This document shows positions 2,471 to 51,722 of a DNA stretch of 64,000 bases, one piece after another (position 1 is the stretch's first letter; each line of letters starts with the position of its first letter). Made by a program: the position numbers and the translations under genes. Source of the stretch: a virus; IMG/VR virus record IMGVR_UViG_3300042351_000704, positions 1 to 64,000 of that record. One strand, 5' to 3'. The notes beneath the pieces are model-generated. The model was not told the origin of the DNA and did not search any database. It saw nothing but the letters and a program-made list of their open reading frames with translations.

Positions 2471-2835
2471 TGGCAATAGTAAACCAGGTAGACAAACGTG
2501 TAAAACTGAGTAATTGGCAGATTGTCAAGTACCAGATCCTTACGCATTGCTACTTATACGACATACCGGTGAGTGACTCAGACCTGAACTGTCTGACACT
2601 GCTGGCTATTATGGGAGAAGTGGAACTCACTTCTTTCTGTAATAAGGCCCATGTGATGAACATCTTTTCTTCCGAGCAGTCCGTAAGGAACTGCCTCACC
2701 AAGGTGGAAAAGAAAAGCCTCATCAAAAAAGAAGGCAAGAACAAAAAGAAAATATACCTCCATCCAGAGATGAAGGTGCACAGCAAGGGTAGCATTCTGT
2801 TAGACTACAAATTTCTAAGCGTTGAAACCAAGTAA
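2470..2835 (+). CDS. conserved phage protein, probable winged HTH
   Basis: SEQSVRNCLTKVEKKSLIKK resembles a wHTH recognition helix and wing; coupled to neighbours. Confidence 0.65.
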   Translation: MAIVNQVDKRVKLSNWQIVKYQILTHCYLYDIPVSDSDLNCLTLLAIMGEVELTSFCNKAHVMNIFSSEQSVRNCLTKVEKKSLIKKEGKNKKKIYLHPEMKVHSKGSILLDYKFLSVETK

Positions 2836-3241
2836 GGCTAAACAGTTTATACCGGAAGTGGCCGCTGAACTTGAGATGAGTGAAGATGCAGTGACGGCTA
2901 TCATCAATTTTTACTGGGAAGAAGTGAGAAAGTCTCTGTCGGGACTGAAGCATTCAAGAGTACACCTCACCAACCTGGGAGACTTTGTGATTAAGCACTG
3001 GAAACTGGATGATAAGATTGACAAGCTGGAGCGTTTTGAAGAAAACAACCGGCTGAAAGGTATGCAGCAAATGACGGCCAGGTTTAAAACCGTAGAAACC
3101 CTTTATGATCTGAATAACCTGAAAGCCATCATGGCAGAAGAAAAACAACGGGCAGAGTTTATCAAACTACATAAAAAGACAACACATGTCAATACAAGAG
3201 AACATAATCCGAATATGGAAGAACAAGGGACAGATCATTGA
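2822..3241 (+). CDS. HU/IHF-like DNA-binding protein
   Basis: FIPEVAAELEMSEDAVTAIINFYWEEVRKSL...VHLTNLGDFVIK matches the HU/IHF pattern; crAss-like phages encode such genes. Confidence 0.7.
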   Translation: MKPSKAKQFIPEVAAELEMSEDAVTAIINFYWEEVRKSLSGLKHSRVHLTNLGDFVIKHWKLDDKIDKLERFEENNRLKGMQQMTARFKTVETLYDLNNLKAIMAEEKQRAEFIKLHKKTTHVNTREHNPNMEEQGTDH

Positions 3242-3515
3242 GGGCATCACCAACAGTGTGTTTAAGCGTGAGGATGTAGAAGAAATTGCACAACAGAGAA
3301 TGCAGGTTTGTATGAATTGTGCACTTTACGATGTGCAAGGTGACGGATGTATGGTGCCCGGCACGCAGCCTTGTTGTAACGAGAAGATGGGTGGATGCGG
3401 ATGTTCTCTTGGGTTTAAAACCAGGTCCTTGTCCAGTGCATGTCCAAAGGGATACTGGGACGCAGAACTGAATGAACATGAAGAAGACCAGCTGAACGAA
3501 AAACTTGCACTCTGA
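3186..3515 (+). CDS. Cys-rich (probable Zn-binding) phage protein
   Basis: RMQVCMNC...CC..GGCGCSLGFKTRSLSSACPKGYW. Confidence 0.75.
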   Translation: MSIQENIIRIWKNKGQIIEGITNSVFKREDVEEIAQQRMQVCMNCALYDVQGDGCMVPGTQPCCNEKMGGCGCSLGFKTRSLSSACPKGYWDAELNEHEEDQLNEKLAL

Positions 3516-3912
3516 CATGCCCATCGAGACCACCGGAGAATGTGTGCGCCTAGAAGTAGTTCACTCTGTATATAAGAACAAGGTGGTCTATGAGCAAATG
3601 CCGGAAGGAGACCTCTTTCCTGTAAAAAAAGAAGTGCTGCATAAACAGATCCGTGTAAAGAAATGGTTTAAGAAAGAAGCCATAACAAGTGTGGAGCAGT
3701 ATGTCACTACCAAAAACACGATAGCTAAGAACCGGTCCATTGTATTTGATAAATATTCAGCCAGGTTTTACGCCACCTACCATACCCCGGAAGAGATCAT
3801 GAACACTATTGATCTGTATTCCAAATCCTATAGAAACCAAATTGGCTTTACCTATGATACTAAGATTTACCCCGCAGGATCACAAATACACCAGCATAAA
3901 AAAAGAAGATGA
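3505..3912 (+). CDS. hypothetical protein (start may be the ATG at 3517)
   Basis: Fills the operon between coupled genes. Confidence 0.65.
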   Translation: MHSDMPIETTGECVRLEVVHSVYKNKVVYEQMPEGDLFPVKKEVLHKQIRVKKWFKKEAITSVEQYVTTKNTIAKNRSIVFDKYSARFYATYHTPEEIMNTIDLYSKSYRNQIGFTYDTKIYPAGSQIHQHKKRR

Positions 3913-4690
3913 ACGTGATTGGATCAGTGCCACTTCTTTTATCGGAAACTTTAAACAACCCTTTGACGCAGATGCCATAGCCGCAAAAAGCAGCCGCAAG
4001 AAAAACTCTAAGTGGTATGGTATGACTCCTGATGATATCAAAGCAGCCTGGAAAGCAGAAGCCCTTCGTGCTACAACACTGGGCACCTGGTATCACAACT
4101 GCAGAGAGCGTGACCTTTGTGAACTGGAAACTATTGAACGCACTGGTGTCACTGTACCGATTGTAAAACCAATCGAGATAGAAGGTGTCAAGTATTCTCC
4201 CGAGCAAAAACTTTTTGATGGTGTCTATCCGGAACACCTGGTTTATTTAAAGAGTGCAGGCATCTGTGGTCAGTCCGACCTGGTAGAAGTGATTAACGGT
4301 CAGGTGCACATCACCGACTACAAGACCAATAAAGAAATTAAGACAGAAGGATTTACTAACTGGGAAGGCATCACTACTAGAATGTTACCACCGGTGGCGC
4401 ACCTGGATGATTGTAACCTGAATCATTATGCATTGCAGCTGAGCCTGTACATGTTTATGATTTTAAAACACAACCCAAGACTAAAGCCTGGTGTACTTAC
4501 TATCCACCACATCTTATTTGAGACCGTGGGAGAAGATAAGTTTGGTAATCCTATCACTGCCCTGGACACTACAGGTAATCCCATTGTAAAAGATATTGTG
4601 CAATATGACCTGCCTTATTTAAAACAGGAGATTGTTGCACTGCTGCACTGGCTGGAAGATAACCGTGATAAAATAAAAGCCAAGCATTAA
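3854..4690 (+). CDS. PD-(D/E)XK nuclease (RecB/Cas4-like)
   Basis: GTWYH, GICGQSDLV, ITDYKT and HYALQLSLY motifs; start moved to the in-frame CCT-ATG at 3854. Confidence 0.9.
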   Translation: MILRFTPQDHKYTSIKKEDERDWISATSFIGNFKQPFDADAIAAKSSRKKNSKWYGMTPDDIKAAWKAEALRATTLGTWYHNCRERDLCELETIERTGVTVPIVKPIEIEGVKYSPEQKLFDGVYPEHLVYLKSAGICGQSDLVEVINGQVHITDYKTNKEIKTEGFTNWEGITTRMLPPVAHLDDCNLNHYALQLSLYMFMILKHNPRLKPGVLTIHHILFETVGEDKFGNPITALDTTGNPIVKDIVQYDLPYLKQEIVALLHWLEDNRDKIKAKH

Positions 4691-5370
4691 TGAGAGTCTT
4701 GTTTGATCACATCAACGGTTTTGGAAAAGTGAGTGACCAGGATTTTATCTACTCGCAGCCGCATGGTGTGCTAGAAGAAGGGGAGAGTGCAAGTGAAGCA
4801 TTAGCCTGTGGTTGGATACCCTGGGAAGACGCGTGGTATAACCTGAGATCAGTAAGAATAGACTTGAGTGCATACAAGCCTCATGAAACTACACGCAAGA
4901 AAGCAAAGCTTGTTAATGGTGTGTACGAAAAGTTTGAAGATAGTCCTGAGTACAGAGAGCTCTATGAGAAGTATTGCGCTCACCATGGATTTCAACGGAC
5001 GATTACATGGGAACAGTTATTTACCGGTAGCGTAATAAATTATTACTACAACGATAAGCTGATTGGCTATTCTACAGTGGATATATATGAAGATGCCATG
5101 GTAGCTACACAGTTTGTATGGGACTACGCAGAGCCATCACTATCACTTGGAAAGGTAGCACAGATGTATGAGTGTGAAGCTGCAAAAATGATGGGCTGTA
5201 AGCATGTGTACATCCTGGGTGGATACGAGAAGTGTTGTTTATACAAATCTGACTTCTACGGATTTCAGTGGTGGACCGGATCTGTGTGGAGTGAAGATAA
5301 AGACCTATACAAAAAACTTTGCCTGCGCGATGACCAGGCCAAAGTAAACTATGAAGACTATGATACATGA
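4690..5370 (+). CDS. ATE1/Bpt-like aminoacyl-tRNA--protein transferase
   Basis: ALACGW..RSVRIDL, ELYEKY, KLIGYSTVD and FVWDY..PSLSLGK...GCKHVYILGGY..CCLYKSDF line up in order with ATE_N/ATE_C motifs. Confidence 0.75.
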   Translation: MRVLFDHINGFGKVSDQDFIYSQPHGVLEEGESASEALACGWIPWEDAWYNLRSVRIDLSAYKPHETTRKKAKLVNGVYEKFEDSPEYRELYEKYCAHHGFQRTITWEQLFTGSVINYYYNDKLIGYSTVDIYEDAMVATQFVWDYAEPSLSLGKVAQMYECEAAKMMGCKHVYILGGYEKCCLYKSDFYGFQWWTGSVWSEDKDLYKKLCLRDDQAKVNYEDYDT

Positions 5371-5554
5371 ACCGCGCAACCGGGTTGAAGTAACCACACC
5401 AAAAGGTGATGGGGTGATATGGCTGGTGACCGACTATGGTCATGAGACCGATACGATTTATACAGTGATCATAAACGCCACCGGAGAGTTCTGGCAGTTT
5501 GCTCACAAAGACATTAAAGCTAAAAAGAACATAACATTTGGAAGAACATGGTAA
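5351..5554 (+). CDS. hypothetical protein (small beta-rich)
   Basis: Overlap-coupled ORF. Confidence 0.7.
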   Translation: MKTMIHEPRNRVEVTTPKGDGVIWLVTDYGHETDTIYTVIINATGEFWQFAHKDIKAKKNITFGRTW

Positions 5555-6060
5555 GATTATTTGACATACAGAACGGAAAAGTGATACCCAGTGAACATTG
5601 CTATACATTAGCGTCACTGAAGAAGATTATTGAAGACTATCCGCAGGATTACTCCCGCGTGTACGCGTACATTTTTTACATGACCTGCCCTAACCCGGAC
5701 CTCAATCCATTCTTTGATGTACCGGAGCAAGACAAGGAAGAACTAATCCTGCAGGAAGTGGAAGCAGATTTCTCTACTGATGATGAAACCATTATCAATG
5801 CGATCAAGCTCTGTGAGAAAATGTACCAGACCCCTACGTACAGAGCCTACCAGGGGATTAAGATTGCCCTGGATAACATGGCCACCTTTATGGCTACTGA
5901 GAAACCTACCTCCGGAAGAGACGGATCGGCTACAGCGCTCTTAAGAATTGCAGAACGCTTTGATATGGTGAGACAATCTTTCAAAGGTGTCTACCGTGAC
6001 CTGATCGAAGAGCAGCAATCAACGGTGAGGGGTGGACAAAATCTGGCCTACGATCAATAG
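5548..6060 (+). CDS. conserved crAss-like protein, possible terminase small subunit
   Basis: 170 aa, helical, upstream of terL, C-terminal VRGG..AYD; function inferred from position only. Confidence 0.6.
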   Translation: MVRLFDIQNGKVIPSEHCYTLASLKKIIEDYPQDYSRVYAYIFYMTCPNPDLNPFFDVPEQDKEELILQEVEADFSTDDETIINAIKLCEKMYQTPTYRAYQGIKIALDNMATFMATEKPTSGRDGSATALLRIAERFDMVRQSFKGVYRDLIEEQQSTVRGGQNLAYDQ

Positions 6061-6063
6061 AAG

Positions 6064-6125
6064 TTGTAGAACTTATTTATAAAAGCTCTACATTTGTAGA
6101 ACTACAGCGTGTGATGTTGCACGCT
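6064..6125 (+). promoter_or_regulatory. putative promoter/operator: TGTAGA inverted repeat, TACATTTG -7 element, leader hairpin
   Basis: TGTAGAACTT..AAGCTCTACA; TACATTTG fits TAnnTTTG; AGCGTG/CACGCT stem at 6106-6125. Confidence 0.5.
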
Positions 6126-6140
6126 AAAAACTTTACGGAA

Positions 6141-6392
6141 ATGACCAAAAACATTACGCCAGTGGCGATCTGGCACAATGAACAAACAGTAAGTGCTGTT
6201 GCTATTCGGTTTTGTTGTATTCAAGATGACCTGGAAACCCAGGCTATTTATTACTACGAACTTAGATCAACAACAGATATAATTACTGCCGGAAACCTCA
6301 CCCTCACAGGAACACCCTATGATGACAGAGATTCCAACCAGTATGTTATGGACTGGGTTGCTTCTCAACTCACGCTGACATACAGCACATAA
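6141..6392 (+). CDS. hypothetical protein
   Basis: ORF 6111-6392; the ATG at 6141, downstream of the hairpin, is the more plausible start. Confidence 0.65.
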   Translation: MTKNITPVAIWHNEQTVSAVAIRFCCIQDDLETQAIYYYELRSTTDIITAGNLTLTGTPYDDRDSNQYVMDWVASQLTLTYST

Positions 6393-6393
6393 A

Positions 6394-6476
6394 GCCCTGT
6401 TGGTGAAATGGTAGACACGCTGTCTTCAGGAGGCAGTGTCAGTAATGACGTGAGAGTTCGAATCTCTCATAGGGCA
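6394..6476 (+). tRNA. trnL: tRNA-Leu (anticodon CAG), CCA not encoded
   Basis: Acceptor GCCCTGT/ATAGGGC, D-loop TGGTAGA, anticodon stem CTGTC/GGCAG with loop TTCAGGA (CAG at 6427-6429), long variable arm GTCA-GTAA-TGAC, T-arm GAGAG-TTCGAAT-CTCTC, discriminator A. Confidence 0.95.
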
Positions 6477-6489
6477 CAAATCAACACCT

Positions 6490-6654
6490 ATGAAAGAACA
6501 TCCACCCGTACTCTCTCAATCGGTAGAGCAATTCCTGTCTTTGTACATCATGTCTACGGAGGCTGTGCGGATTACCAGTAACGGTGTGTTCATCCTTAAT
6601 ACGCCTGTTAAGAAACGCAACCGCAGGAAGATGAGTAAAAATAAATCCCTATGA
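6490..6654 (+). CDS. small hypothetical protein (54 aa, basic C-terminus), not in the ORF track
   Basis: CCT-ATG start; MKEHPPVLSQ...KKRNRRKMSKNKSL*; ATGA overlap with the next gene. Confidence 0.6.
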   Translation: MKEHPPVLSQSVEQFLSLYIMSTEAVRITSNGVFILNTPVKKRNRRKMSKNKSL

Positions 6655-6872
6655 AAAACAACGACTACTTAAATGACTGGGTATTCCACTTTAATCCGTA
6701 TACGGAGATGTGGGCTGCCATTCCCAAAGATCATTACCAGGACTACTGGAATGATTACGCACACGCAGACATTCTGCGTTCTACACACCTAAACACCCTG
6801 ATTGATCTTTTACACAAAAGCAAGGGTGATGTAGAGATGATCCATAGCCTTACCAAAGTGGGTGTTAAGTAA
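6651..6872 (+). CDS. hypothetical protein
   Basis: CCT-ATG start; TAATG coupling to terL. Confidence 0.75.
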   Translation: MKNNDYLNDWVFHFNPYTEMWAAIPKDHYQDYWNDYAHADILRSTHLNTLIDLLHKSKGDVEMIHSLTKVGVK

Positions 6873-9067
6873 TGACTCCATATAAAGAAGTGCCCACCTG
6901 GGACAACGGTCAATGGATCGTCACCACTTTTTATACCCGGGAAGAGTTCCGGGATTATCTGCTTTTTTTATTTAAGCAGCCTGGTGAATATTTATTTGAC
7001 GAGAGTAGCAAGATATTTAATGCTGAAGGCAGAAAGTTTCAGCAGCAGGGATTTTACTGTGCTGCTCCTACCAGAAGTAAAGACTTTATTGTCTATTGGG
7101 ATGATCAGAAGATGAAGTGCAGAAACGGCATTATCGTTAAAAACGGGACTAATGCATGGTATGTCACGCGTGACTACTACATGTGGCTGAACTTTCTTCC
7201 CATCTATGACAAAGAAGAAAAACGTTTTGATTTTGCCAAGGTGAGAGACGCCCAGTATCACATGGCGCTGTATGAACACCTGGCTGAGCTGCACTATAAA
7301 CATGCAGTGATACTTAAGAAACGTCAGATAGCCTCTTCTTACTTTCACATGGCCAAGATCATCAACACCTATTGGTTTGAATCAGGCTCTATATGTAAGA
7401 TTGGGTCATCACTTAAAGACTATATCAACGAGAAAGGATCCTGGAAGTTTCTAAACGAGTATAAGAACTTCCTGAACGAGCACACTGCCTGGTACAGACC
7501 GGCAGAACCTGAAAAGGTGTTTGCCTGGAACCAGCAGATTAAGGTGAGGATCAACGGACGTGACACGTTCAAAGGACTCAAGAGCAGTATTAGTGGATAC
7601 TCTTTTGAAAAAGATCCAACCAATGGTGTGGGTGGTCCCGTAACTTATTTCTTCCACGAGGAAGCAGGTATTGCTCCAAAGATGAATGACACCTATGGAT
7701 TCATTAAGCCTGCACTAAAGTCTGGTCACATCATCACCGGTCAGTTTATTGCAGCAGGATCAGTCGGTGACCTGGACCAGTGTGAACCCATGAAAGAATA
7801 CATCATGCACCCGGAAGAAAACGGGTTTTATGGTGTACAGAGTAACTTATTAGACAAAGACGGCACACTATCTATTACCGGGTTGTTTATACCCGAGCAG
7901 TGGAGTATGCCTCCTTATATTGATCAGTACGGGAATTCTCTGGTAGAGGATGCCCTGGTTGCCCTGGACGCACAGTTTGAAAAAGCCAAGCGTGACCTTG
8001 CTCCGGATGCGTACCAGTTAGAAGTGTCCCAGCATCCCAGAAACATTGAAGAAGCTTTTGCTACCAGAAAGGTGAGTGTATTTCCGCCACACCTGGTCTC
8101 TAAACAACTGCAGCGCATAGCAGATAAAGAGTATCCGGTGGAATACCTGGACCTTTCGCGTGACGCGGAAGGACGCATCGTAGACAAGCCGTCCAGGAAG
8201 ATCCCCATCCTGGAGTTTCCTATATCCAAAAAGACAGAAGACAAGACCGGAGTGATCTGTGTCTACGAACGACCGGTAAAAAACCCAACGTTTGGGATGT
8301 ACTATGCCTCAGTGGATCCGGTAGGGGAAGGTAAGACCACTACTTCGGACTCTCTTTGCGCCATTTACATCTACAAGAACCCTGTAGAAGTGATCAAAGA
8401 CTACGGGGACGGAAAAGTGGAGAATAGTATTGAACGTGACCGGATCGTGGCTAGTTGGTGCGGACGTTTTGATGATATCAATAAAACCCATGAACGCCTG
8501 GAGATGATGATCGAGTGGTATAACGCCTGGACCATTGTCGAGAACAACGTAGCCCTGTTTATACAATACATGATCAGCCGTAAAAGGCAGAAGTATTTGG
8601 TACCCAAGGACATGATCCTGTTCCTAAAGGACATTGGGGCCAACCGCAATGTGTTCCAGGAATACGGCTGGAAGAACGTGGGCACCCTGTTCAAGGGTAA
8701 CATTCTGAGCTACGGGATCGAGTTTACCAAAGAAGAACTAGACACCGAAACCAAGGCCAACGGAGACATTGTACATACCACGTATGGTGTAGAACGTATA
8801 CCAGATCCTATGCTGCTAAAAGAAATGCAGGCCTATCAGGACGGGGTGAACGTGGATAGGCTGGTAGCCTTTTGTGCCCTGATTGCCTTTGCCAAAGTGC
8901 AGCAATCTAACAGAGGCTACAGTAAACGTGTAGAACATGCCCATCAAAAGTTGGAGAACTCACAAAAAATCAGTAAATTAAATTGGGGACCTTTTAGACA
9001 TATGGGGTCCTCTAAAGGCAGTTCTATAGGTCATAAACCCCGGAACCCTTTTAAAAACCTCAGCTAA
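6872..9067 (+). CDS. terL: terminase large subunit
   Basis: Walker A-like LKKRQIASS, Walker B FFHEEAG, nuclease YASVDPV and C-terminal NVDRLVA; precedes portal. Confidence 0.93.
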   Translation: MTPYKEVPTWDNGQWIVTTFYTREEFRDYLLFLFKQPGEYLFDESSKIFNAEGRKFQQQGFYCAAPTRSKDFIVYWDDQKMKCRNGIIVKNGTNAWYVTRDYYMWLNFLPIYDKEEKRFDFAKVRDAQYHMALYEHLAELHYKHAVILKKRQIASSYFHMAKIINTYWFESGSICKIGSSLKDYINEKGSWKFLNEYKNFLNEHTAWYRPAEPEKVFAWNQQIKVRINGRDTFKGLKSSISGYSFEKDPTNGVGGPVTYFFHEEAGIAPKMNDTYGFIKPALKSGHIITGQFIAAGSVGDLDQCEPMKEYIMHPEENGFYGVQSNLLDKDGTLSITGLFIPEQWSMPPYIDQYGNSLVEDALVALDAQFEKAKRDLAPDAYQLEVSQHPRNIEEAFATRKVSVFPPHLVSKQLQRIADKEYPVEYLDLSRDAEGRIVDKPSRKIPILEFPISKKTEDKTGVICVYERPVKNPTFGMYYASVDPVGEGKTTTSDSLCAIYIYKNPVEVIKDYGDGKVENSIERDRIVASWCGRFDDINKTHERLEMMIEWYNAWTIVENNVALFIQYMISRKRQKYLVPKDMILFLKDIGANRNVFQEYGWKNVGTLFKGNILSYGIEFTKEELDTETKANGDIVHTTYGVERIPDPMLLKEMQAYQDGVNVDRLVAFCALIAFAKVQQSNRGYSKRVEHAHQKLENSQKISKLNWGPFRHMGSSKGSSIGHKPRNPFKNLS

Positions 9068-9072
9068 CTCCT

Positions 9073-9381
9073 ATGGAAACCCAAGAACTCACCCTGCACC
9101 AGCAGAAGGTAACAATCCTAAGCCGTCTTGTAAAAGATAATCAACTCACTTTGGAAGAGGCCCTGCTTCTTTTAAAGGAGGAGGAGAAGGAACCTGCAGA
9201 AATCACGGTGGCTCCTTATAATCCAAACGGAATTGGGACTATACAATGGAACCCTATGCCTTACACTTCTACAGGTACACTCCTGGTTAACACCAACGGA
9301 AACGTAGGCATTGGAACAACTACCTCTAGCTCCAATACTAAACTCTCTATCAACAGCCCAGATGCTGACCTAAATAATTAA
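9073..9381 (+). CDS. hypothetical protein with a GNVGIGTT motif
   Basis: CCT-ATG start; lies between terL and portal. Confidence 0.7.
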   Translation: METQELTLHQQKVTILSRLVKDNQLTLEEALLLLKEEEKEPAEITVAPYNPNGIGTIQWNPMPYTSTGTLLVNTNGNVGIGTTTSSSNTKLSINSPDADLNN

Positions 9382-9384
9382 TGC

Positions 9385-12135
9385 ATGGAAATATTAAATG
9401 CACTCGACCTCAAGAAGGGGAAGAAAGCTGACTACAACAAGATGGGTACGCTGGTTCAGCCTATTCAGTTCCTTTCAGAAAAGGAAAAGGACGAAGAATG
9501 GAGAGCCTGGAACCTGGATTGGTTAGAATTCCAGGGCATGAAGCAGCTGAGACGCAATGCCCGCAGGCTGATGAAGAACTACAAGCTGGCCAAAGGCATT
9601 ATTGACAAGAGTGACTATATCGTAGAAGAGAATAACGAGATGGCCGACCTGATTGATACCCTGACCAAAGAGGATCAATCAGCACTGGAACTGAAGTTTT
9701 ACCCTATTATACCCAATGTCGTTAACGTACTTGCTAACGAATTTAGCAAACGTACCTCCAAGATCACCTACCGTGCCGTAGACGATAACTCGTACCAGGA
9801 AATGCTTGAAGAAAAGCGTTCCCTGATCGAGGAAACCCTGCTTCAGCAAGCTCAGCAAAAGATGCTGGTAAACATGATCAACATGGGTATGGACCCTGAG
9901 AGCGAGGAAGCAGCCGAGATGATGGCTCCTGAAAACTTAAAGAGCCTTCCTGAAATAGAAGAATTCTTCCGTAAAGACTACCGTTCTATGGTAGAAGAAT
10001 GGGCCACTCACCAGATGAAAGTGGATACCGAACGATTTGGTATGGCTGAACTGGAAGAGCGTGGCTTCAGAGACATGCTGATTGCCGATCGTGAGTTCTG
10101 GCATTTCCAGATGAGGGAAGATGATTACGATATTGAGCTGTGGAACCCGCTGCTTACTTTCTATCACAAGAGTCCCGATGTCCGTTACATCTCCCAGGGT
10201 AACTGGGTGGGTAAGATGGACATGATGAGTGTATCGGATGTGATTGACAAGTTTGGCTGGATGATGAACCAGGAGCAACTAGAAGCCCTGGAAGCGATTT
10301 ACCCTGTACGTTCTGCCGGTTACGCAGTACAGGGATACCAAAATGATGGAACTTATTATGATCCGACCCGATCACACGAATGGAATACGCAAATGCCTTC
10401 CCTGGCTTATAGACAGTTTACTTCTCTTTATGATACCAAGTTTGGAACCGGGGATATTGTGGAGTGGATACTTTCAGATTCTGAAGACACGATTGATTTT
10501 GGCAAGACACATCTCTTACGTGTTACTCAGGCATACTGGAAAAGCCAGCGTAAGGTGGGTCATCTTACCCGCATCAATGAGAACGGAGAGATTTCTCAGG
10601 ACATTATCTCTGAAAACTACAAGGTGACTGAAAAGCCTTTGTACAACACTACGCTGTATAAGCAAAAGAGCAAAGACAACTTAATATTTGGAGAACACAT
10701 TGACTGGATCTGGATCAACGAGACCTGGGGTGGTATCAAGATTGGACCTAACCGTCCTGCATTCTGGGGAATGAACAACCCGGGAGGTATTAACCCGATC
10801 TATCTTGGACTGAATGGCGGTAAGCCAGGACGTATTCCGTTTCAGTTTAAAGGAGACTCAACACTATACGGCTGCAAATTGCCGGTGGAAGGTGCTGTAT
10901 TTGGTGATAGAAACACCCGCAGTATTTCACTGGTAGATTTGATGAAGCCTTACCAGATAGGCTATAACATTGTAAACAATCAGATTGCTGACATCCTCGT
11001 AGACGAGCTTGGTACAGTGATTCTTTTGGACCAGAACGCTTTGCCACGTCACTCTATGGGAGAAGACTGGGGTAAAAATAATCTGGCCAACGCCTATGTG
11101 GCTATGAAGAACTTCCAGATGCTACCGCTGGATACTACCATTACCAATACAGAGAACGCGATGAGCTTCCAGCACTACCAGGTGCTAAACCTCGAGCAGA
11201 CCAACCGTTTGTTAAGCCGTATACAACTGGCTACTTATTTTAAGAACCAGGCTTTTGAAGTGATCGGTCTGAACCCTCAACGTATGGGTCAGCAGATAGC
11301 TCAACAGCAAACTGCCACCGGTATTGAGCAGGCTATGAATGCATCATATGCACAGACTGAGCAATACTTTACCCAGCACTCTGACTACCTGATGCCACGC
11401 GTACATCAAATGCGTACTGACCTGGCACAGTTCTACCATTCTCAAAAGCCAAGCTTACGCCTGCAGTATATTACTACCAATGACGAGAAGGTAAACTTCC
11501 AGATCAATGGTACGGATCTGCTAATGCGTGACTTCAATATATTCTGTACTACTAAGACCAATCAGCGTCAGGTGATGGAGCAACTCCGTAGCCTGGCTAT
11601 GAATAACAACACTACCGGTGCATCAATCTATGACCTGGGTAATGTGATTAAGAGTGAATCAGTGGCTGAGCTTACTGGTGTACTCAAAGATGCAGAACAA
11701 AAGAATATTGCTCAAAAGCAGGCTGAAATGCAACAGCAGCAGCAAATGCAGCAGGAACTTCTGGCTAGTCAGGAAAGACAAAAGCAAATGGATCTGCAGT
11801 TCAAGAGTGATGAAGCAGAGAAAGATCGTCAGAACGATGTTCTTGTGGCCGAAATCCGTGCAGCAGGTTATGGTGCTATGATGGACCTCAATGAAAACAA
11901 GGTGAGTGACTTCAATGACTCGATGAAAGAGATCCGCCAGAGTGACCAGTACCGTGAGCAAATGAGTTTTAAGCGTGAGCAGGAGATCAATAAATCAAGC
12001 ATGAATACCCAGAAGATTGAGCTTGAAAGACAACGCCTGCAAACACAAAGAGAGATAGCAGATAAACAACTGGAAGTGGCGCGCGAGAATAAAAACAAGT
12101 ATGACGTAGCTAAAAAGGACAAGAAATCCAAGTAA
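9385..12135 (+). CDS. portal protein
   Basis: 916 aa after terL; FYPIIPNVVNVL, SLVDLMKPYQI.YNIVNNQ, IGLNPQRMGQ and a Gln-rich coiled-coil tail, as in crAss-like portals. Confidence 0.9.
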   Translation: MEILNALDLKKGKKADYNKMGTLVQPIQFLSEKEKDEEWRAWNLDWLEFQGMKQLRRNARRLMKNYKLAKGIIDKSDYIVEENNEMADLIDTLTKEDQSALELKFYPIIPNVVNVLANEFSKRTSKITYRAVDDNSYQEMLEEKRSLIEETLLQQAQQKMLVNMINMGMDPESEEAAEMMAPENLKSLPEIEEFFRKDYRSMVEEWATHQMKVDTERFGMAELEERGFRDMLIADREFWHFQMREDDYDIELWNPLLTFYHKSPDVRYISQGNWVGKMDMMSVSDVIDKFGWMMNQEQLEALEAIYPVRSAGYAVQGYQNDGTYYDPTRSHEWNTQMPSLAYRQFTSLYDTKFGTGDIVEWILSDSEDTIDFGKTHLLRVTQAYWKSQRKVGHLTRINENGEISQDIISENYKVTEKPLYNTTLYKQKSKDNLIFGEHIDWIWINETWGGIKIGPNRPAFWGMNNPGGINPIYLGLNGGKPGRIPFQFKGDSTLYGCKLPVEGAVFGDRNTRSISLVDLMKPYQIGYNIVNNQIADILVDELGTVILLDQNALPRHSMGEDWGKNNLANAYVAMKNFQMLPLDTTITNTENAMSFQHYQVLNLEQTNRLLSRIQLATYFKNQAFEVIGLNPQRMGQQIAQQQTATGIEQAMNASYAQTEQYFTQHSDYLMPRVHQMRTDLAQFYHSQKPSLRLQYITTNDEKVNFQINGTDLLMRDFNIFCTTKTNQRQVMEQLRSLAMNNNTTGASIYDLGNVIKSESVAELTGVLKDAEQKNIAQKQAEMQQQQQMQQELLASQERQKQMDLQFKSDEAEKDRQNDVLVAEIRAAGYGAMMDLNENKVSDFNDSMKEIRQSDQYREQMSFKREQEINKSSMNTQKIELERQRLQTQREIADKQLEVARENKNKYDVAKKDKKSK

Positions 12136-44800: not shown

Positions 44801-46458
44801 TCTTTAATTCAGGCGTGCGTGACTTCTATGTAGAATCAGAAGTGAACGTAGCGTACAGAGACTGGGAAGATGACTTTAGCAGACGCCACTATGATCCGTT
44901 ACGTTATACAGATCTTAGCATGCTATTTCGCTCTGATATTATCAAGAGTGGAAACTACTATAAGTATGATTACTCTTTGAGTGTATCTAAGCTGTTCAAC
45001 TCCCAGATTACCTGGGGTGAATTACTACCAAGAGATTATGATCCCGAGGTGGCTGCTACCTGTTACACTTACAGACCTAACCGTGTATTGTATTCTTTAC
45101 AACAACAGGACAACTCTAAAGATGATAACTGGAGAGTATACCTGGCCAATAACTACCGTGACTTCCCTGCCAGGGTAACAGTAATCAAATCAGTGAATTC
45201 TACTGGTGCGTTATTTATGCTCAAAGACAGAAGCCCTCAGCTTTTTAGCGGAGAGGAGCAACTGAAGATGGACGGTACAGGCGCTGTGATCAGTATTGGT
45301 GATGGTAACTTATTTAACCAGCCTGGTCAGTTGAAGTCTATTGTCAATGCAGACCGCTCTTACGAGTATGGCTCTTGCCAGAGCAAGTATGCTCACCTGG
45401 GGAATGTATACGGTGTATTCTGGGTAAGCCAGGACCAGGGTAAAGTGTTCCAGTATGCCGGTGGTATCAATGAGATATCACGCGATGGTATGAAATACTG
45501 GTTTGCCAAATACCTACCAAGTGAATTACTAAAACTATACCCTGAATATCCACTGGCGGATAACCCGCTTGTTGGTGTAGGTGTACAAATGATCTATGAT
45601 AATACCAATGAGATTATCTACATCAGTAAGAAAGATTACAAGCCAAAGGTTAGTAACCTACTTTATGATGATAAAGGATTCTATTCTCTGGTAGGCACTG
45701 TAAAAACTTACCGTCCGTTTACCGATTCAACTGCATGGGAAGACGCCAGCTGGACTGTATCATATGATCCAAAATCAAAGACCTGGATCAGCTACCATGA
45801 CTGGAAACCTACGTTCCTGATACCTGGTAAGAATCATTTTATGAGTGTAAACCGTAACAGCATTTGGAAACACAACATGCGTTGCGATCTGTTCTGTAAC
45901 TACTACGGTGTTGACTATCCGTTTGAAGTGGAGTTTATTTCTTCTACCGGACAGCAAACGACTTCTCTTAGAAACATTGAGTTCCTGCTGGAAGCATACA
46001 AGTATCATAACAGCTGTGCAGATAAGTTCCATGTACTGGATGAAAACTTTGACCAGGCTATTGTCTATAACTCTGAGCAGATCTCCGGACTACTGGAGCT
46101 GAACTTAAAGAGCAAGACTAATCCGGTGTCGATGTTAAACTTCCCGCAAGTGGGACCACAGTCTATCAAGATCCTATACGCAAAAGAAGAACAGAAGTAC
46201 AGGTTTAACCAGTTCTGGGATATTACCAAGAACCGTGGAGAGTTCAGTGCAACAACCAATGTACCAATGTTTAATACCAGGGCTAACGGATATGAGTTCC
46301 CGATTAACCCTCAGTATGTAAACTATCAAAAGTCACCACTTGAGCATAAGAAGTTTCGTCATAACGTGAACCGTGTATTACTCCGTAAACTGAAGAGTGC
46401 AGACGTGAAGCTACTATTCAAACTATCTAACCAGAAAATATTACAATCACCGAGGTAA
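41887..46458 (+). CDS. tail stabilization (muzzle) protein
   Basis: 1523 aa beta-rich; RDEQYAFFIRF, GKPIRHHKMPD, FGGDTYINRF, WTVSYDPKSKTWISYHDW; crAss-like synteny. Confidence 0.85.
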   Translation: MAEQSQNPGAVTNSFSKGMVKDFNDTFVGEGLWSHARNAVNNSHDGQVGVIGNEPANLHCVTLPYDLIGCILLTDDRWAIFTTNDIDSEIGIFDESACTYTKAVNDRCLNFKRSNLITGISRRRYDCERPVYWADGLNPDRFIDLDNIPFKYTETLVDGCIQRTFTNQLDCEKIRLAAYIKHPCLELSQGKVAGSLLNGSYQVAIAYTINGSRVTDYLGLSEVQSLFTHENNNSSLELKVLSVDTTFDTFDLALISRVNEQTFVRKIGEYSTSQGTIYIDRIDFETPTIPIQNILLRSEPIEKSDALYSVNDYALRVGVYSKFKFNYQQQANKIKTSWVAVEYPNNYYIKGGNNTSYLRDEQYAFFIRFIYNTGERSESYHIPGRAATSFDTQNITGTDVYENLDGIQRQRWQVENTASVNSISTAALPDGGKVVASGEMGYWESTELYPADKPNIWGNLCGKPIRHHKMPDVTITGGGVVNHFTTDGKIVLLGVQFDNIIAPVDNNGQPIASIVGYEILRGSRQGNKSIMAKGMFNNMREYTIPGNTTLKGLYQNYPYNDLRPDLYLSDRRRISGEGVVNVTESNSPTLKTYKKDVFSFHSPEVTFTNPFLNADEVKIYEELHGTARGQFEVPFRHPKFKVATNFTAAVARISGLMDAVAKVGKGIKIAATENIPIDMQFGPIGKPPAFPSASGGEITGPLQTAAAWAKYALDLITWGVEVATIVSLIGALAEIQSEKLFELFRILIPKRQYAAQYNSHGFYDKFIISLVGNRRRKILDASYMAGSNLQYFNDKYQVNNIHRSSGLVIQTHADISNPTVVDNSRTTISDSGKGLYNTFSTTISSHYGAVKLLMPSQYGQLNSIKQLSVSVCMHPMKADTTTKHSTGVLFGGDTYINRFTEKNSMFFFNNWLMGEQDDIEFDYTQYINVPWARYWLHNTQYHSTFLKAADDFRALDDRQSSAFHVNRGYFYLFNSGVRDFYVESEVNVAYRDWEDDFSRRHYDPLRYTDLSMLFRSDIIKSGNYYKYDYSLSVSKLFNSQITWGELLPRDYDPEVAATCYTYRPNRVLYSLQQQDNSKDDNWRVYLANNYRDFPARVTVIKSVNSTGALFMLKDRSPQLFSGEEQLKMDGTGAVISIGDGNLFNQPGQLKSIVNADRSYEYGSCQSKYAHLGNVYGVFWVSQDQGKVFQYAGGINEISRDGMKYWFAKYLPSELLKLYPEYPLADNPLVGVGVQMIYDNTNEIIYISKKDYKPKVSNLLYDDKGFYSLVGTVKTYRPFTDSTAWEDASWTVSYDPKSKTWISYHDWKPTFLIPGKNHFMSVNRNSIWKHNMRCDLFCNYYGVDYPFEVEFISSTGQQTTSLRNIEFLLEAYKYHNSCADKFHVLDENFDQAIVYNSEQISGLLELNLKSKTNPVSMLNFPQVGPQSIKILYAKEEQKYRFNQFWDITKNRGEFSATTNVPMFNTRANGYEFPINPQYVNYQKSPLEHKKFRHNVNRVLLRKLKSADVKLLFKLSNQKILQSPR

Positions 46459-49400
46459 TGAGTCAGTTCCTAAAATATATTACTAAGAAGATGCGTGGTG
46501 GTGGAGACATTGGTTCTTTGCCAGGTGTTCTTTCTTTGTCTGCTATCCAGCAAAAGATCAAGCTTGAAAAGGACATTAAAAATCAGAAGGCTAGAAATGC
46601 TCAGGCTACTATTTCTCAGTACATTCCAAAGCCTGGAGATCAGCAGAGAATGAACAGAGCCAAAGATGCTTACCGTGCAGACCTTGCTAAGCCTTTAAAC
46701 AGGGCAGCAGAGTCTCAGCTGGCAGCCAATGCCTGGAGCAACATTGTAAAGCCTATGCTGGAAATGGAAGGGATTGCATCTGGTGTTAGTGGTGTACGCA
46801 GTATGCTGGCTAAACCAAAGAGAATACCTACCAGTTTTTATTCTGATCCGGTGATTACTAGAGGACCTATTCCTAACCCATGGGATGGTAAAGGAATACG
46901 CGTGGAGATGGAAGGATCTTTAGACGTACCAGAAGGTATGATGCCTTATATAGGTAGGGAAGAGTGGGTTCCGACTACACCTGCAGAAAAGGTGTGGGCA
47001 TCTTTTTTTAACGGAAAGGCAAGACCTATTCCTCCTCCATATAAAAAACAAAAAGGTGGAGCTTATGTAGACTCTGTCTTTAATGCTCCAAATAATAAAC
47101 AACTAGAATGGGTTCAAAGACTCTATCAAAAAAATGGTAAGAGTATTATGGTACCTGGACAAACTGAACCGTCTACACATTATATGGAAAGTGGTGATGG
47201 TCGTGTGTATCCAACTGTAGTAACAATGCCTGACGGTAGTTTAAAATATTTAGGTAAAGGTGCTTATGATTATGCAGACTCTACTAAAACTTACATAAAA
47301 TTTCCAACAGATAATCAAGCCAAGTGGTTTGGTAAGAACTATAAAAAAGGAACTGGTGTACTAGCTAAGAAAAAAGGCGGTCCTATAGTAGACCCTCGTG
47401 GTCAGTGGGCACATCCTGGAAAGGTTACACGTATACCAGGATCTGACATCACTATGCAAGGTGTACCTTATCCTGTATTAGGTGTAGGCTCTAATGGTCA
47501 ACAGCAAATGATGTATCCTGGTGAAAACTATGATTTTGGTGGTGCTGCGTATGTAGATGAGTACCCAATGATGCAGTTTGGTGGTGGAACATTACTTGGT
47601 CCTTCTGGAATGATAATGTCACTAGCTTCTAAAGTTGCTAACTATTTTTCTAAACCAAAAAGTTCGGGAACTAATAAACGCATGACGACATATGGTCAAA
47701 TGAATGATAGTTATGCTAATAGAAATAAAACTTTCTATGATAAGTGGCAAGCTAATGATGCAATAAAGTATGATAGTTCAGTGAACCCTATTAATTTAAC
47801 TTCTGGTCGTTTTAGAGGAGCTAAGGTAGCACCAGGAATGATTAATGATATAGTTAACGCAGCTAAAACTAATAATGTAGATCCATGGTTAATGTTATCT
47901 CTTGTAGGTAGAGAATCTACTTTTGGCGCAGACAAGGAGTATATTGACCACAGAGAAGGTAATAAACAAGACTTAATTTCAGGTTGGAATGTAGCAGAAG
48001 ATTATCAACCATATGAAGTAAATAGATACTTAGCTGATAAAAAAGTACCAGGTATTAAAGTAATTAAAAATAGTGATGGTTGGAGTTATGAAGTAGAAGA
48101 TGAACAAGCTATAGAAAGTTATCTAAAAAGTAATCCCAAACTTATAGATGATTATTATAAAAAATTAGCATCTACACCTGATCTTGGTAAACTAGATAGT
48201 TTTTCTCTTGCTGCTCAAAGGATTAAAAAGAAAGGGGTTAAGAATTACAATCCCGGTGATCCTAGATATTCTTCTATGGTAAATGAAGATATGAATCTTT
48301 TAAAGAATGATGCTGCATTAAAAGCATACATGAAAACTCTAGGATATAGACAAGGTGGAGAATTTGGTGGTGTTGTTAAGATGCAACGTGGTGGTAGATC
48401 TATGTTTGATCCTATATTTAAGGAGGATCCAAAGCTTAATAAAAACAGAGGTGATATAGCATCCTACTTTCCTCAGATACAAAGGATGAAGGATGAACCT
48501 AAGATAAAGGAGGCAATCGTTAAAGCTGATCAGAAAAGACAACAACAAATACTTGCAGAGGCAGTTGCTATAGGTAATAAAAACAGAACCACTGTTAAAC
48601 AAGATAATAGAACATCTAGAGAAAAAGAGATTGCTCAACAACAAGTTGTTAATGCATACTTGAATGAAGCTAAAGGTAAGTCTCCTTTTGCTCAAACATT
48701 AAGTTCTTTCACACCAACAGGATATAATCCAGAGGCTAGTAAGATAGCCGCTGAAAACATAGGACAAATGACTCCTATGATGGGAGCCACTAGATTATTT
48801 AACACTGTAAGAGATCCTGAAAATAACCCTTATGGTATTGGTCAAGGGAATGGATTTCTAGCAAATACATTAGGTACAATAGGATTACTTGGAGATGTTT
48901 TTGATGTAGGTGCTGTAGCTGCTCCTGGTGTAAAAGCTGCAGGTAATTATCTTACCCAACAAACACCTTTAAGAAATGCTCATAAGTTAAATCCTTATGC
49001 TTTAACTGATGATATGTTGTTTAACAAAGAAGGAGTTGTTAACAGACAAATGTTTGGAGATGATGCTTACAACAGTTTTTTAAAATTTGGTCCTACTACT
49101 AGACCAGGTGTTCCAGAAATGGATAAGTTTATGGAATTTATTAAAGCACCTAGATCACAAATAAGATCTGCAAATGATGAGGTGTTTGAGGTTGTAAACA
49201 CTATGGAAGATGGAGTATTTAAATATCCATATTTTCAAGAAGGTAGTCTTTGGTATACAGGACAGCAAAGAAATAATCTTGCTAAGGAATTAGGAAAAGA
49301 AAGAATTATAACAACTCCTAAGTCAGATATTTGGTTTGCACCAGCTGGAGAAGCTACATTAATGGGTGGTGATGATCTTGTTTCAAAAGGTTTAATAGAT

Positions 49401-51722
49401 AGGTACTCAAAAGGAAGAAGAGTGTTGATACCAGGAACTGAGTACGCCAAACCATCTAAGTATTCTGTATTTGAACCACATTGGTGGAAAGGTTATAAAC
49501 AACTACAAAAAGATGGTGGTCAGATTTTAAATGACTATGATATAATGCAATTAGGAGGTCAGTCTGCAAAGAAAAGTCCGTATTTTTTTATGAACTTAAA
49601 TGATGACTTTACTACAATGCTTAAAAATAGAGACTATGTAAAAAGTGAGTATAACAAGGGTATGGATTTTCATACTAAGTGGCTTAACTCGCCTATGTAC
49701 AAGAGTATGATTAATGCATCTGATCCTGTCAATGCAAAAAATATTACTGACCAACGTAAAGATCGTCTTTCTGCTGTGACTATGAAATACGTTGATGACC
49801 CATATAATAAAGCTGGAGCTTCTGCTGATCAATTAGGAAATATAGAAGTATACCCAGAAGGAATTGGTGCTAAAGGTATAGGTGTTCATGAGATCTCTCA
49901 TGTAACAGATACAGGTCCAGGTCAAAATCTTATACCTACTAAAGATAGGATTGATATATCAAGATATAGTCTTGCTTCAGAAAATATCCCAAAGTATAAT
50001 GCTTATAAAGAGTATTTTAATTATGTTACTCGACCTTCAGAAACAAGAGCTAGGTTAAATGAAATACGCCAAGGAGCTTCTGAAAATAAATTATATGATC
50101 CATTTACTGAGAAAGTAAGTCCAGCTATATATAATAAACTTAAAAACTTCAAGTTTAATAGTACACCTGGTAGTGATCCTCTTCAACAATTAAGGTCTGC
50201 TTACAGTGATGAACAGATTTTACAAATGCTTAATAGTGTTTCTAAATTAAGTACTAATAAAAATAATGATATGCAAAACATGATGAATGATGGTGGAGAA
50301 ATGATACGTAGAGCTGATGGCACATACTCTCGTAGAGGTCTATGGGACAACATACGTGCTAACAAAGGATCTGGCAAGAAGCCTACAAACGAAATGCTGG
50401 AACAAGAACGTAAGATCAAAGCTAAAGAAATGAAATACGGTGGTGGCACCAACAATCCTGGCTTTGAAGCTTTGCCTGATTATGTACAGGCTAAGATCCT
50501 TTCTAACATGGGATATGGTGGAATGACCTATCCGTTTATGCAAAAAGGTGGTGAACCTGATGGATCTATGGCTCTTGGTCAAATAGATGCTGCTATGGAT
50601 AAACTACAAAAGCTTCGTCAGTTTATACAACCGGATTCTGATCTCGAACCATGGATAAGTTCTAAACTTACTATGATGGATGACTATGCAGATGCTGTTT
50701 CTGACTACATGATGTATAATCCAGATGCTGAACTAGATGAACTAGACCAAATGAGAAATGGCGGATATGTTGTTACAAGAAGTGATGACCGTAAAGGAAA
50801 GACACATAAAGTGACCGGACCTGATGGTACTGTAAAATACTTTGGTGATTCTAAGCTGGGTCAGCACCCGGGTGATCCCGAAAGAAAAGAAGCATTCTAT
50901 GCACGCCATAAAAAGAATCTGGATGGTAATCCATACTTCAGAGCGTTTGCAAGAGAGACATGGGCAGATGGTGGTGCTCTAGAATATGGTATGGGTGGAA
51001 TGCCTTGCTATGAGTGTGGTGGCGCTATGTATAAAGAAGGTGGAATGTACGACTGTCCTGATCAGGAAAAAGATCCTGTAACAGGTAAATGTAAAGCTGA
51101 GGTTGTTCGTGGTAGAGAAGCAAATGCAGCTAACAAAGCAGCTAATGCAGACATGAACGCATGGGCTAAGCAAGTTGCTGCTATGGATAAAGAAGTTGCT
51201 AAACAGAATGCTGCTCAGTATGCAGGACAAAGAAGTTTTGATTATGACTGGATGCAATCTCCTGTAGATAAAGCAGAGAAGAAAGCAGCCATTGCTCAAT
51301 ACAAACAATTTATTCAGCAGAACCCTAACGTATTTGTAGCAGATGATTCATCCGGGGTTAGCCCAGAACAGAAGTATATCATTGCTTCTAAGCTTAAGCA
51401 AAAGTCAAGCACTCCAATGGGGTCCAAAGCATTTCAGCAAAAGTTTAACCAGGATGCACGCTTACTAGATCTTGGACGTATACAGTCTGACATTGTTCCT
51501 TTAATGGGTGGCTGGAGTGGAATTCAGAACTGGCTTTTTGGTAATAAAAAATTCGGTGGCTACATAGGACAAGACGGAAAACGTCACATGTCTAAAACAC
51601 CTACCTGGTCTGGTAATGCCGGTTATAAACAAGGCGGTCCGGTTATAGGAGAAGAGATGGAAGTAACTCCGGAGCAACTGGAACAACTTCGCGCACAAGG
51701 CTATGAATTTGAAATAATCTAA
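46458..51722 (+). CDS. modular internal virion (cargo) protein with repeated xxxGG linkers; SLT-like, HExxH and other modules
   Basis: Position after muzzle; about 19 GG motifs; LVGRESTFG; VHEISH; FYARH. Confidence 0.75.
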   Translation: MSQFLKYITKKMRGGGDIGSLPGVLSLSAIQQKIKLEKDIKNQKARNAQATISQYIPKPGDQQRMNRAKDAYRADLAKPLNRAAESQLAANAWSNIVKPMLEMEGIASGVSGVRSMLAKPKRIPTSFYSDPVITRGPIPNPWDGKGIRVEMEGSLDVPEGMMPYIGREEWVPTTPAEKVWASFFNGKARPIPPPYKKQKGGAYVDSVFNAPNNKQLEWVQRLYQKNGKSIMVPGQTEPSTHYMESGDGRVYPTVVTMPDGSLKYLGKGAYDYADSTKTYIKFPTDNQAKWFGKNYKKGTGVLAKKKGGPIVDPRGQWAHPGKVTRIPGSDITMQGVPYPVLGVGSNGQQQMMYPGENYDFGGAAYVDEYPMMQFGGGTLLGPSGMIMSLASKVANYFSKPKSSGTNKRMTTYGQMNDSYANRNKTFYDKWQANDAIKYDSSVNPINLTSGRFRGAKVAPGMINDIVNAAKTNNVDPWLMLSLVGRESTFGADKEYIDHREGNKQDLISGWNVAEDYQPYEVNRYLADKKVPGIKVIKNSDGWSYEVEDEQAIESYLKSNPKLIDDYYKKLASTPDLGKLDSFSLAAQRIKKKGVKNYNPGDPRYSSMVNEDMNLLKNDAALKAYMKTLGYRQGGEFGGVVKMQRGGRSMFDPIFKEDPKLNKNRGDIASYFPQIQRMKDEPKIKEAIVKADQKRQQQILAEAVAIGNKNRTTVKQDNRTSREKEIAQQQVVNAYLNEAKGKSPFAQTLSSFTPTGYNPEASKIAAENIGQMTPMMGATRLFNTVRDPENNPYGIGQGNGFLANTLGTIGLLGDVFDVGAVAAPGVKAAGNYLTQQTPLRNAHKLNPYALTDDMLFNKEGVVNRQMFGDDAYNSFLKFGPTTRPGVPEMDKFMEFIKAPRSQIRSANDEVFEVVNTMEDGVFKYPYFQEGSLWYTGQQRNNLAKELGKERIITTPKSDIWFAPAGEATLMGGDDLVSKGLIDRYSKGRRVLIPGTEYAKPSKYSVFEPHWWKGYKQLQKDGGQILNDYDIMQLGGQSAKKSPYFFMNLNDDFTTMLKNRDYVKSEYNKGMDFHTKWLNSPMYKSMINASDPVNAKNITDQRKDRLSAVTMKYVDDPYNKAGASADQLGNIEVYPEGIGAKGIGVHEISHVTDTGPGQNLIPTKDRIDISRYSLASENIPKYNAYKEYFNYVTRPSETRARLNEIRQGASENKLYDPFTEKVSPAIYNKLKNFKFNSTPGSDPLQQLRSAYSDEQILQMLNSVSKLSTNKNNDMQNMMNDGGEMIRRADGTYSRRGLWDNIRANKGSGKKPTNEMLEQERKIKAKEMKYGGGTNNPGFEALPDYVQAKILSNMGYGGMTYPFMQKGGEPDGSMALGQIDAAMDKLQKLRQFIQPDSDLEPWISSKLTMMDDYADAVSDYMMYNPDAELDELDQMRNGGYVVTRSDDRKGKTHKVTGPDGTVKYFGDSKLGQHPGDPERKEAFYARHKKNLDGNPYFRAFARETWADGGALEYGMGGMPCYECGGAMYKEGGMYDCPDQEKDPVTGKCKAEVVRGREANAANKAANADMNAWAKQVAAMDKEVAKQNAAQYAGQRSFDYDWMQSPVDKAEKKAAIAQYKQFIQQNPNVFVADDSSGVSPEQKYIIASKLKQKSSTPMGSKAFQQKFNQDARLLDLGRIQSDIVPLMGGWSGIQNWLFGNKKFGGYIGQDGKRHMSKTPTWSGNAGYKQGGPVIGEEMEVTPEQLEQLRAQGYEFEII

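Follow-up and report, generated by a model that had tools for sequence, protein, structure and literature searches.

A compact ATE1-like transferase gene paired with a small beta-barrel protein gene in a phage genome

The enzymes known to move an amino acid from a tRNA to a protein, namely ATE1, Bpt, and Aat, are all cellular. Described here is a related gene carried by a phage, found in a stretch of DNA (the window) that comprises the first 64 kb of the 109,551-bp IMG/VR virus record IMGVR_UViG_3300042351_000704, which is estimated to be 85% complete. The gene lies at 4690-5370 on the + strand, has an ATG start, and encodes a protein of 226 amino acids (aa) annotated as a minimal virus-type ATE/Bpt-like aminoacyl-tRNA-dependent transferase from its Pfam ATE_C match, its AlphaFold2 model, and its structural match to ATE1. 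The ATG shares sequence with the stop codon of a PD-(D/E)XK exonuclease gene (3809-4690, + strand; phrog_298 exonuclease, E 1.5e-23; PDDEXK_1, 22.3 bits) in the sequence TAATG, and its own stop codon is overlapped by the open reading frame (ORF) of a small partner protein (5351-5554, + strand), a putative SH3/Tudor/KOW-like beta-barrel that is 67 aa long as listed and 64 aa long from its probable start, ATG 5360. The stop of the partner gene is in turn overlapped by a 170-aa ORF (5548-6060, + strand), which matched no Pfam or PHROG family and is included for context only. Because consecutive ORFs overlap, the exonuclease, the transferase, the partner, and the 170-aa ORF look co-translated. Further along the same strand, at 6394-6477, ARAGORN places a tRNA-Leu(CAG), an occupant of a variable tRNA slot that is judged to be outside the transferase module.

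The 226-aa protein is a compact member of the ATE1/Bpt superfamily. An earlier note on this DNA had placed the ORF in the ATE/Bpt superfamily on the basis of motifs, all of which are present in its translation (GWIPW, VRIDL, ELYEKY, DKLIGYSTVD, VWDYAEPSLSLGK, and HVYILGGYEKCCLYK), and the assignment holds, the best profile being ATE_C and the best structure ATE1 as opposed to an acyl-CoA GNAT or a FemABX protein. Pfam ATE_C (PF04377) is the sole significant profile, with an E-value of 1.9e-10 and 41.8 bits against a gathering cut-off of 25, and it reaches 42.8 bits in a six-frame search of the genome. The protein gave no match to ATE_N (PF04376) even at E<=10, none in PHROG, and none to the profiles Leu_Phe_trans, FemAB, and LPG_synthase_C. 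The Bpt-type models of NCBIfam (PRK01305 "arginyltransferase") scored 15-34 bits against cut-offs of 170-358, the best of them 33.9 vs 252. An AlphaFold2 model built from 31 homologues has a mean predicted local distance difference test score (pLDDT) of 82, and its top Foldseek matches are all ATE1 proteins (human, K. lactis, and yeast; E 2e-8 to 6e-7). VIA-align against ATE1 gave Z-scores of 13-14.3 with 210-212 of the 226 residues aligned, such that residues 1-217 of the model lie on residues 12-333 of K. lactis Ate1 (klAte1); MprF, FemX, LF-transferase, tRNA-dependent peptide synthases, and ordinary GNATs rank after ATE1 in this comparison and align over the core only. It is the ATE_C profile together with this whole-length fold match that identifies the protein as ATE1-like.

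The motif set is far beyond chance, since it is conserved in more than 170 homologues of 224-230 aa and in at least 570 viral stretches of IMG/VR, the latter found in a second scan seeded with distant members. No fused forms of the transferase were found among the longer proteins searched; repeated matches to long proteins proved spurious, and one of these was a cystatin-repeat protein.

Residues of the active site were mapped with HMMER alignments to Ate1 chains and with hhalign to a canonical ATE1-type protein, which agree over residues 117-190, and conservation was counted in 55 distant representatives that are only 24-57% identical as well as in the close clade (n=31). The klAte1 mutants Y303F and K304A are inactive (PMC9351520). 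These two residues align with Y185-K186 of the phage protein, and W260 aligns with W144. K186 is found in all 55 distant representatives and Y185 in 46 of them, and both are present in 31/31 members of the close clade, where every mapped active-site and pocket residue is invariant. The arginine pocket of klAte1 is formed by S255, S273, E277, and Y289, for which Bpt has A168, A185, Q189, and L201 (PMC9351520). The corresponding residues of the phage protein are A139, A157, E161, and Y174, so that the phage pocket retains Glu and Tyr and has Ala in place of both Ser. Compared with a Bpt-type pocket, the two Ala agree, with Gln changed to Glu and Leu to Tyr in the phage clade. Across the viral family the pocket is mostly of the S/S/E/Y type (Ser in 31, Ser in 26, Glu in 51, and Tyr in 50 of the 55). 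The invariance of K186 and the retention of the Glu/Tyr pocket of ATE1 argue for an active enzyme with a basic donor, arginine by analogy, rather than leucine. A basic stretch, TTRKKAK, also falls in a predicted helix at the place where ATE1 has its tRNA-binding helix.

The N-terminal region departs further from ATE1. The N-terminal cysteine cluster had been suspected to be missing, and indeed nothing in the phage protein corresponds to the four Zn/Fe-S cysteines of ATE1, and residues 1-95 contain no conserved Cys. Representatives at the 50% level that are 257-274 aa long gave ATE_C only or no Pfam match when scanned. When the N-terminus was compared by hhalign with the ATE_N region of canonical ATE1 and of a cellular homologue from Bacteroidota, only the core was aligned or the alignment was weak. 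Within the N-terminal 80 residues, GWIPW was set on GFRRSG by eye and not by a program, which places I43 of the phage protein at the position of klAte1 R80. In this alignment, most of the 55 representatives have L, I, or A at position 43, and Arg, Lys, and His are never among the six commonest residues there. Given the lack of the ATE_N Cys4 site and the hydrophobic residue that this alignment by eye puts at the R80 position, the acceptor is probably not the canonical N-terminal Asp/Glu. A Gly-Gly cargo protein encoded at 46458-51722 was considered as a source of substrates and rejected, as acidic residues are not clearly enriched after its 15 [hydrophobic]-x-x-G-G motifs (the residues that follow are D, A, G, E, R, Q, E, G, M, E, Y, M, A, M, and P).

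The transferase has a strictly co-inherited companion in the small barrel protein. A neighbourhood comparison found a homologue of 5351-5554 directly 3' of the ATE gene in 80/80 close loci, and in five distant loci the partner directly precedes the transferase, which means that the adjacency has survived a change of gene order. An exonuclease homologue lies upstream of the ATE gene in 32 related loci, and a homologue of the 170-aa ORF is found at the same offset in 36/80. The partner is 66-89% identical where the transferase is 50-60% identical, and the alignment of its homologues (A4) shows invariant V14, T16, P17, G19, G21, N60, T62, and R65; the start at ATG 5360 matches most relatives as well as the Atlas record, and the Atlas clusters of the partner are 91-97% viral. 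No Pfam or PHROG family was matched. Its AlphaFold2 model (pLDDT 83) is an SH3/Tudor/KOW-like barrel, and the fold matches are of a generic Tudor/KOW type with Z-scores of 5-6.5. In 70 of 80 distant loci (L096-L175, e.g., L128:4369-5004) the transferase is abutted not by the 64-aa barrel but by a 211-aa protein that starts with MAYLNHN and contains NGVNWTRRP. This protein is conserved, belongs to no known family, and had no match in the Atlas; it is usually encoded upstream of the transferase, with a downstream position in L174. An hhalign comparison of the 64-aa and 211-aa partners was not significant (E 0.08). By eye, the neighbours of the 211-aa protein in the distant clade include Hsp20-like and NrdB-like genes.

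The tRNA-Leu(CAG) at 6394-6477 is, as had been noted, the sole tRNA in the window, and ARAGORN finds it to be the sole one in the whole 109,551-bp record as well. It lies 1,024 nt after the transferase stop, in keeping with the spacing of about 1 kb given before. ARAGORN was run on 80 viral loci encoding relatives 50-99% identical. A tRNA-Leu(CAG) lies downstream in only 2/80, both of them contigs about 99% identical to the window. Elsewhere the same slot, 0.7-2.0 kb after the gene, holds tRNA-Met (three loci), tRNA-Cys (two), tRNA-Asp (two), or tRNA-Arg and tRNA-Gly (one), and in about 70 of the 80 loci ARAGORN found no tRNA in it. A DNA search with the tRNA-Leu gave nothing similar in 10 related genomes, six of which are 97-100% complete. 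Because the tRNA-Leu is not co-inherited with the transferase among relatives, an outcome that the earlier note had named as refuting, a link between the two is rejected, and the proposal that the phage supplies both an enzyme and its donor tRNA-Leu, which would also require a Bpt-like pocket in place of the Glu/Tyr one, fails. The idea of a phage-borne donor tRNA can be set aside for this phage. A better fit is the alternative offered in the earlier note, in which the tRNA meets the demand of CTG codons: in the phage, CTG is the most frequent Leu codon (30% of Leu codons at 42% G+C), and its share in low-G+C relatives is 0-5%. The slot turns over fast, and the tRNA-Leu that occupies it in this lineage is better explained by codon usage. 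The segment 6061-6650, between the transferase module and the terminase, constitutes this slot, with equivalents in L004-L008, L020, L022, and L072. It also contains a 93-aa ORF (6111-6392) that ends 2 nt before the tRNA and occurs only in the two near-identical contigs; the ORF and the tRNA may have arrived together.

Genes of the N-degron pathway were found in some of the relatives. A Chitinophagaceae metagenome-assembled genome (MAG) includes a 117.8-kb contig of a related phage, and this contig and four other related records, all of one subclade, encode a ClpS homologue of 84-86 aa (L086:1489-1743, L087:1492-1746, L088:1489-1743, L089:1489-1749, and L090:1489-1743). The gene directly follows a helicase gene and is separated by 10-13 kb from the transferase gene, which is on the other strand. 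The phage ClpS keeps the N-D amine-binding motif, has an equivalent of His66 in 3/5 cases, and has almost no N-terminal extension. In E. coli ClpS, the N-terminal extension is needed for the hand-over of substrates to ClpA, so the phage protein, which has almost none of it, could by analogy act as a blocker instead of an adaptor. No ClpS was found in five relatives that are 97-100% complete, where another gene follows the helicase, nor in 18 records of distant ATE-bearing viruses; the helicase region, and with it the would-be ClpS site, is missing from the incomplete record studied here. With an occurrence in one subclade only and in 0/18 distant records, ClpS was rejected as a conserved partner of the transferase. 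It is a one-lineage add-on that is suggestive of a link to N-end-rule proteolysis. The phages encode no ClpP. Aat was likewise not found, either in the phage or in the Chitinophagaceae MAG, which has a ClpS of its own.

The reading that we favor, and consider probable, is that of a virus-specific mini-ATE that would transfer an amino acid from a tRNA charged by the host to an acceptor amine via Tyr185-Lys186, with the tRNA-Leu being unrelated. Arginine would be the best guess for the donor in view of a pocket with the Glu and Tyr of ATE1. The transferase would work with, or on, the 64-aa beta-barrel protein whose gene overlaps the end of its own, and its acceptor, probably something other than an N-terminal Asp/Glu, may be set by this partner. 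A virus-only two-component system, in which host Arg-tRNA would be used to arginylate a non-Asp/Glu acceptor that the Tudor-like barrel might select or present, is put forward more tentatively. Several observations weigh against the mini-ATE as outlined. In this clade Ala takes the place of both pocket Ser, as it does in Bpt, which leaves room for a less polar donor. The equivalence of R80 and I43 depends on the alignment by eye of GWIPW with GFRRSG, and the invariant R53 and R56 near position 43 could rebuild a basic pocket for Asp/Glu acceptors. Moreover, the presence of ClpS in one subclade fits a classical N-degron role better than it fits a new acceptor.

Such a classical role, in which the transferase would arginylate or tag Asp/Glu N-termini of host or phage proteins for the host ClpS/ClpAP without any involvement of the tRNA gene, seems unlikely overall. 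It would account for the homology to ATE1/Bpt, the N-D motif of the ClpS encoded 10-13 kb from the ATE gene in five related phage records, the ClpS of the MAG that includes the 117.8-kb phage contig, and the two invariant arginines R53 and R56, which could bind an acidic side chain; it does not sit well with the absence of ClpS from the five near-complete relatives and the 18 distant records, the missing ATE_N and Cys4 site, or a position 43 that is hydrophobic across the family in the alignment by eye. In addition, an N-terminal Arg is a secondary destabilizing residue in bacteria that needs Aat, and none was found in either the phage or the MAG. That the phage protein is instead a Bpt-like leucyl transferase, with the phage tRNA-Leu(CAG) as dedicated donor and Leu N-degrons made on Asp/Glu N-termini for ClpS/ClpAP, is very unlikely: against the 1-kb distance between two genes on one strand and the Ala at two pocket positions stand the distribution of the tRNA (2/80 loci, on contigs about 99% identical, and 0/10 related genomes), the Glu/Tyr of ATE1 where Bpt has Gln/Leu (PMC9351520), the low NCBIfam Bpt scores (15-34 bits for cut-offs of 170-358), and the fact that CTG usage alone accounts for the tRNA. 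An acceptor that is not a protein N-terminus at all, but a small molecule, lipid, or cell-wall precursor (cf. FemX, MprF, and the tRNA-dependent peptide synthases) or a side chain of the partner, in a two-gene tailoring system, is distinctly improbable. MprF, FemX, and the Sbb17/Sba18 peptide synthases do come near ATE1 over the GNAT core (Z 11-13.5), the elements of ATE1 for protein acceptors are missing, and the partner differs by viral lineage, being the 64-aa barrel here and the 211-aa protein in 70/80 distant loci. Nevertheless, only ATE1 aligns over the full length, the N-terminal 80 residues included, ATE_C is the sole significant profile, and the flanks hold an exonuclease and a terminase with no biosynthetic neighbors. 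Least credible is a protein that binds but does not catalyze, such as a decoy for aminoacyl-tRNA or host factors; the loss of the metal site and the very small size would suit it, but the catalytic Lys is invariant and the active-site Tyr, Glu, and Trp are nearly so at 24-57% identity.

The transferase region is closely followed, on the + strand, by the genes for the terminase, the portal, and the major head protein. Upstream by 2-3 kb on the same strand are genes for a GNAT acetyltransferase (2039-2470; Acetyltransf_1, E 4e-10) and an HU-like DNA-binding protein (2822-3241; Bac_DNA_binding, 20.5 bits, just below the cut-off). The stretch is present in at least 18 lake-water metagenome runs from 2020-2024. 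In two RNA libraries there are contigs, 95-99% identical to the window, that partly cover the exonuclease, transferase, and partner genes: those of a freshwater metatranscriptome cover several pieces of 3000-9500, including 4827-5140 inside the transferase gene, and the second library covers 5300-5469, across the junction of enzyme and partner. DNA carry-over being possible, these contigs are weak evidence of transcription at best, and no meaning attaches to the parts that they leave uncovered. Among deposited phages (50,697 genomes), no match was found by tblastn or megablast with the gene, its region, or a marine-clade homologue, and a literature search for viral ATE-like genes, covering phage arginyltransferase, ATE_C/PF04377, Bpt, and N-degron, turned up no paper. 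The description that best suits the gene is that of a virus-specific ATE1/Bpt variant in a two-gene module with a small barrel protein. If the reading as two-component arginylation is true, phages would rewrite the ends of host or phage proteins during infection, which is not described in the literature.

Among the known systems, ATE1 (K. lactis 7WFX/7WG1, S. cerevisiae 7TIF/8E3S, and human 8TZV) is the best match in both sequence and structure and the sole one that spans the whole phage protein. Common to both are the GNAT core, the catalytic Tyr-Lys, the motifs WD..P.LSLGK and Y.LG.Y, and, in the arginine pocket, the Glu and Tyr residues (PMC9351520). The phage protein is nevertheless under half the size (226 vs about 500 aa) and has no C-terminal domain, no ATE_N match, and no Cys4 Zn/Fe-S site, about nine residues around the CC motif appearing to be deleted; its residue at the position of klAte1 R80 looks hydrophobic by eye, the two pocket Ser are Ala in its clade, and it is phage-encoded and paired with a small barrel protein. 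Bpt, the Asp/Glu leucyltransferase of Vibrio vulnificus, resembles it in size (about 230-250 aa), prokaryotic setting, superfamily, and the Ala at two pocket positions, whereas the ATE_N Cys motifs are present in Bpt, and its pocket is of the Gln/Leu instead of the Glu/Tyr type. The Chitinophagaceae MAG also encodes a cellular ATE_C protein of 253 aa (L083:1216-1977; 66 bits) with no ATE_N match and with GWYRMRQ instead of GFRRSG, and its sequence suggests that Bacteroidota have their own Cys-poor, Bpt-like variant. This protein is no closer to the phage family than ATE1 is: in hhalign against the phage profile it gave E 0.0033 and a probability of 9.7%, compared with 7.2e-9 and 95.8% for the canonical ATE1-type protein. 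Aat L/F-transferase, FemX, and the MprF aminoacyl-phosphatidylglycerol synthases share the GNAT core and the general chemistry (Z 11-13.5 over 140-170 residues), but their matches cover the core only and not the N-terminal region, and there is no profile match. Set beside these cellular enzymes, the phage protein would represent a large virus-borne branch in which the target-reading parts were lost, the chemistry was kept, and an obligate small partner was gained, and, if active, it would provide phages with a new way to edit proteins and offer a compact tool for tRNA-dependent N-terminal labeling.

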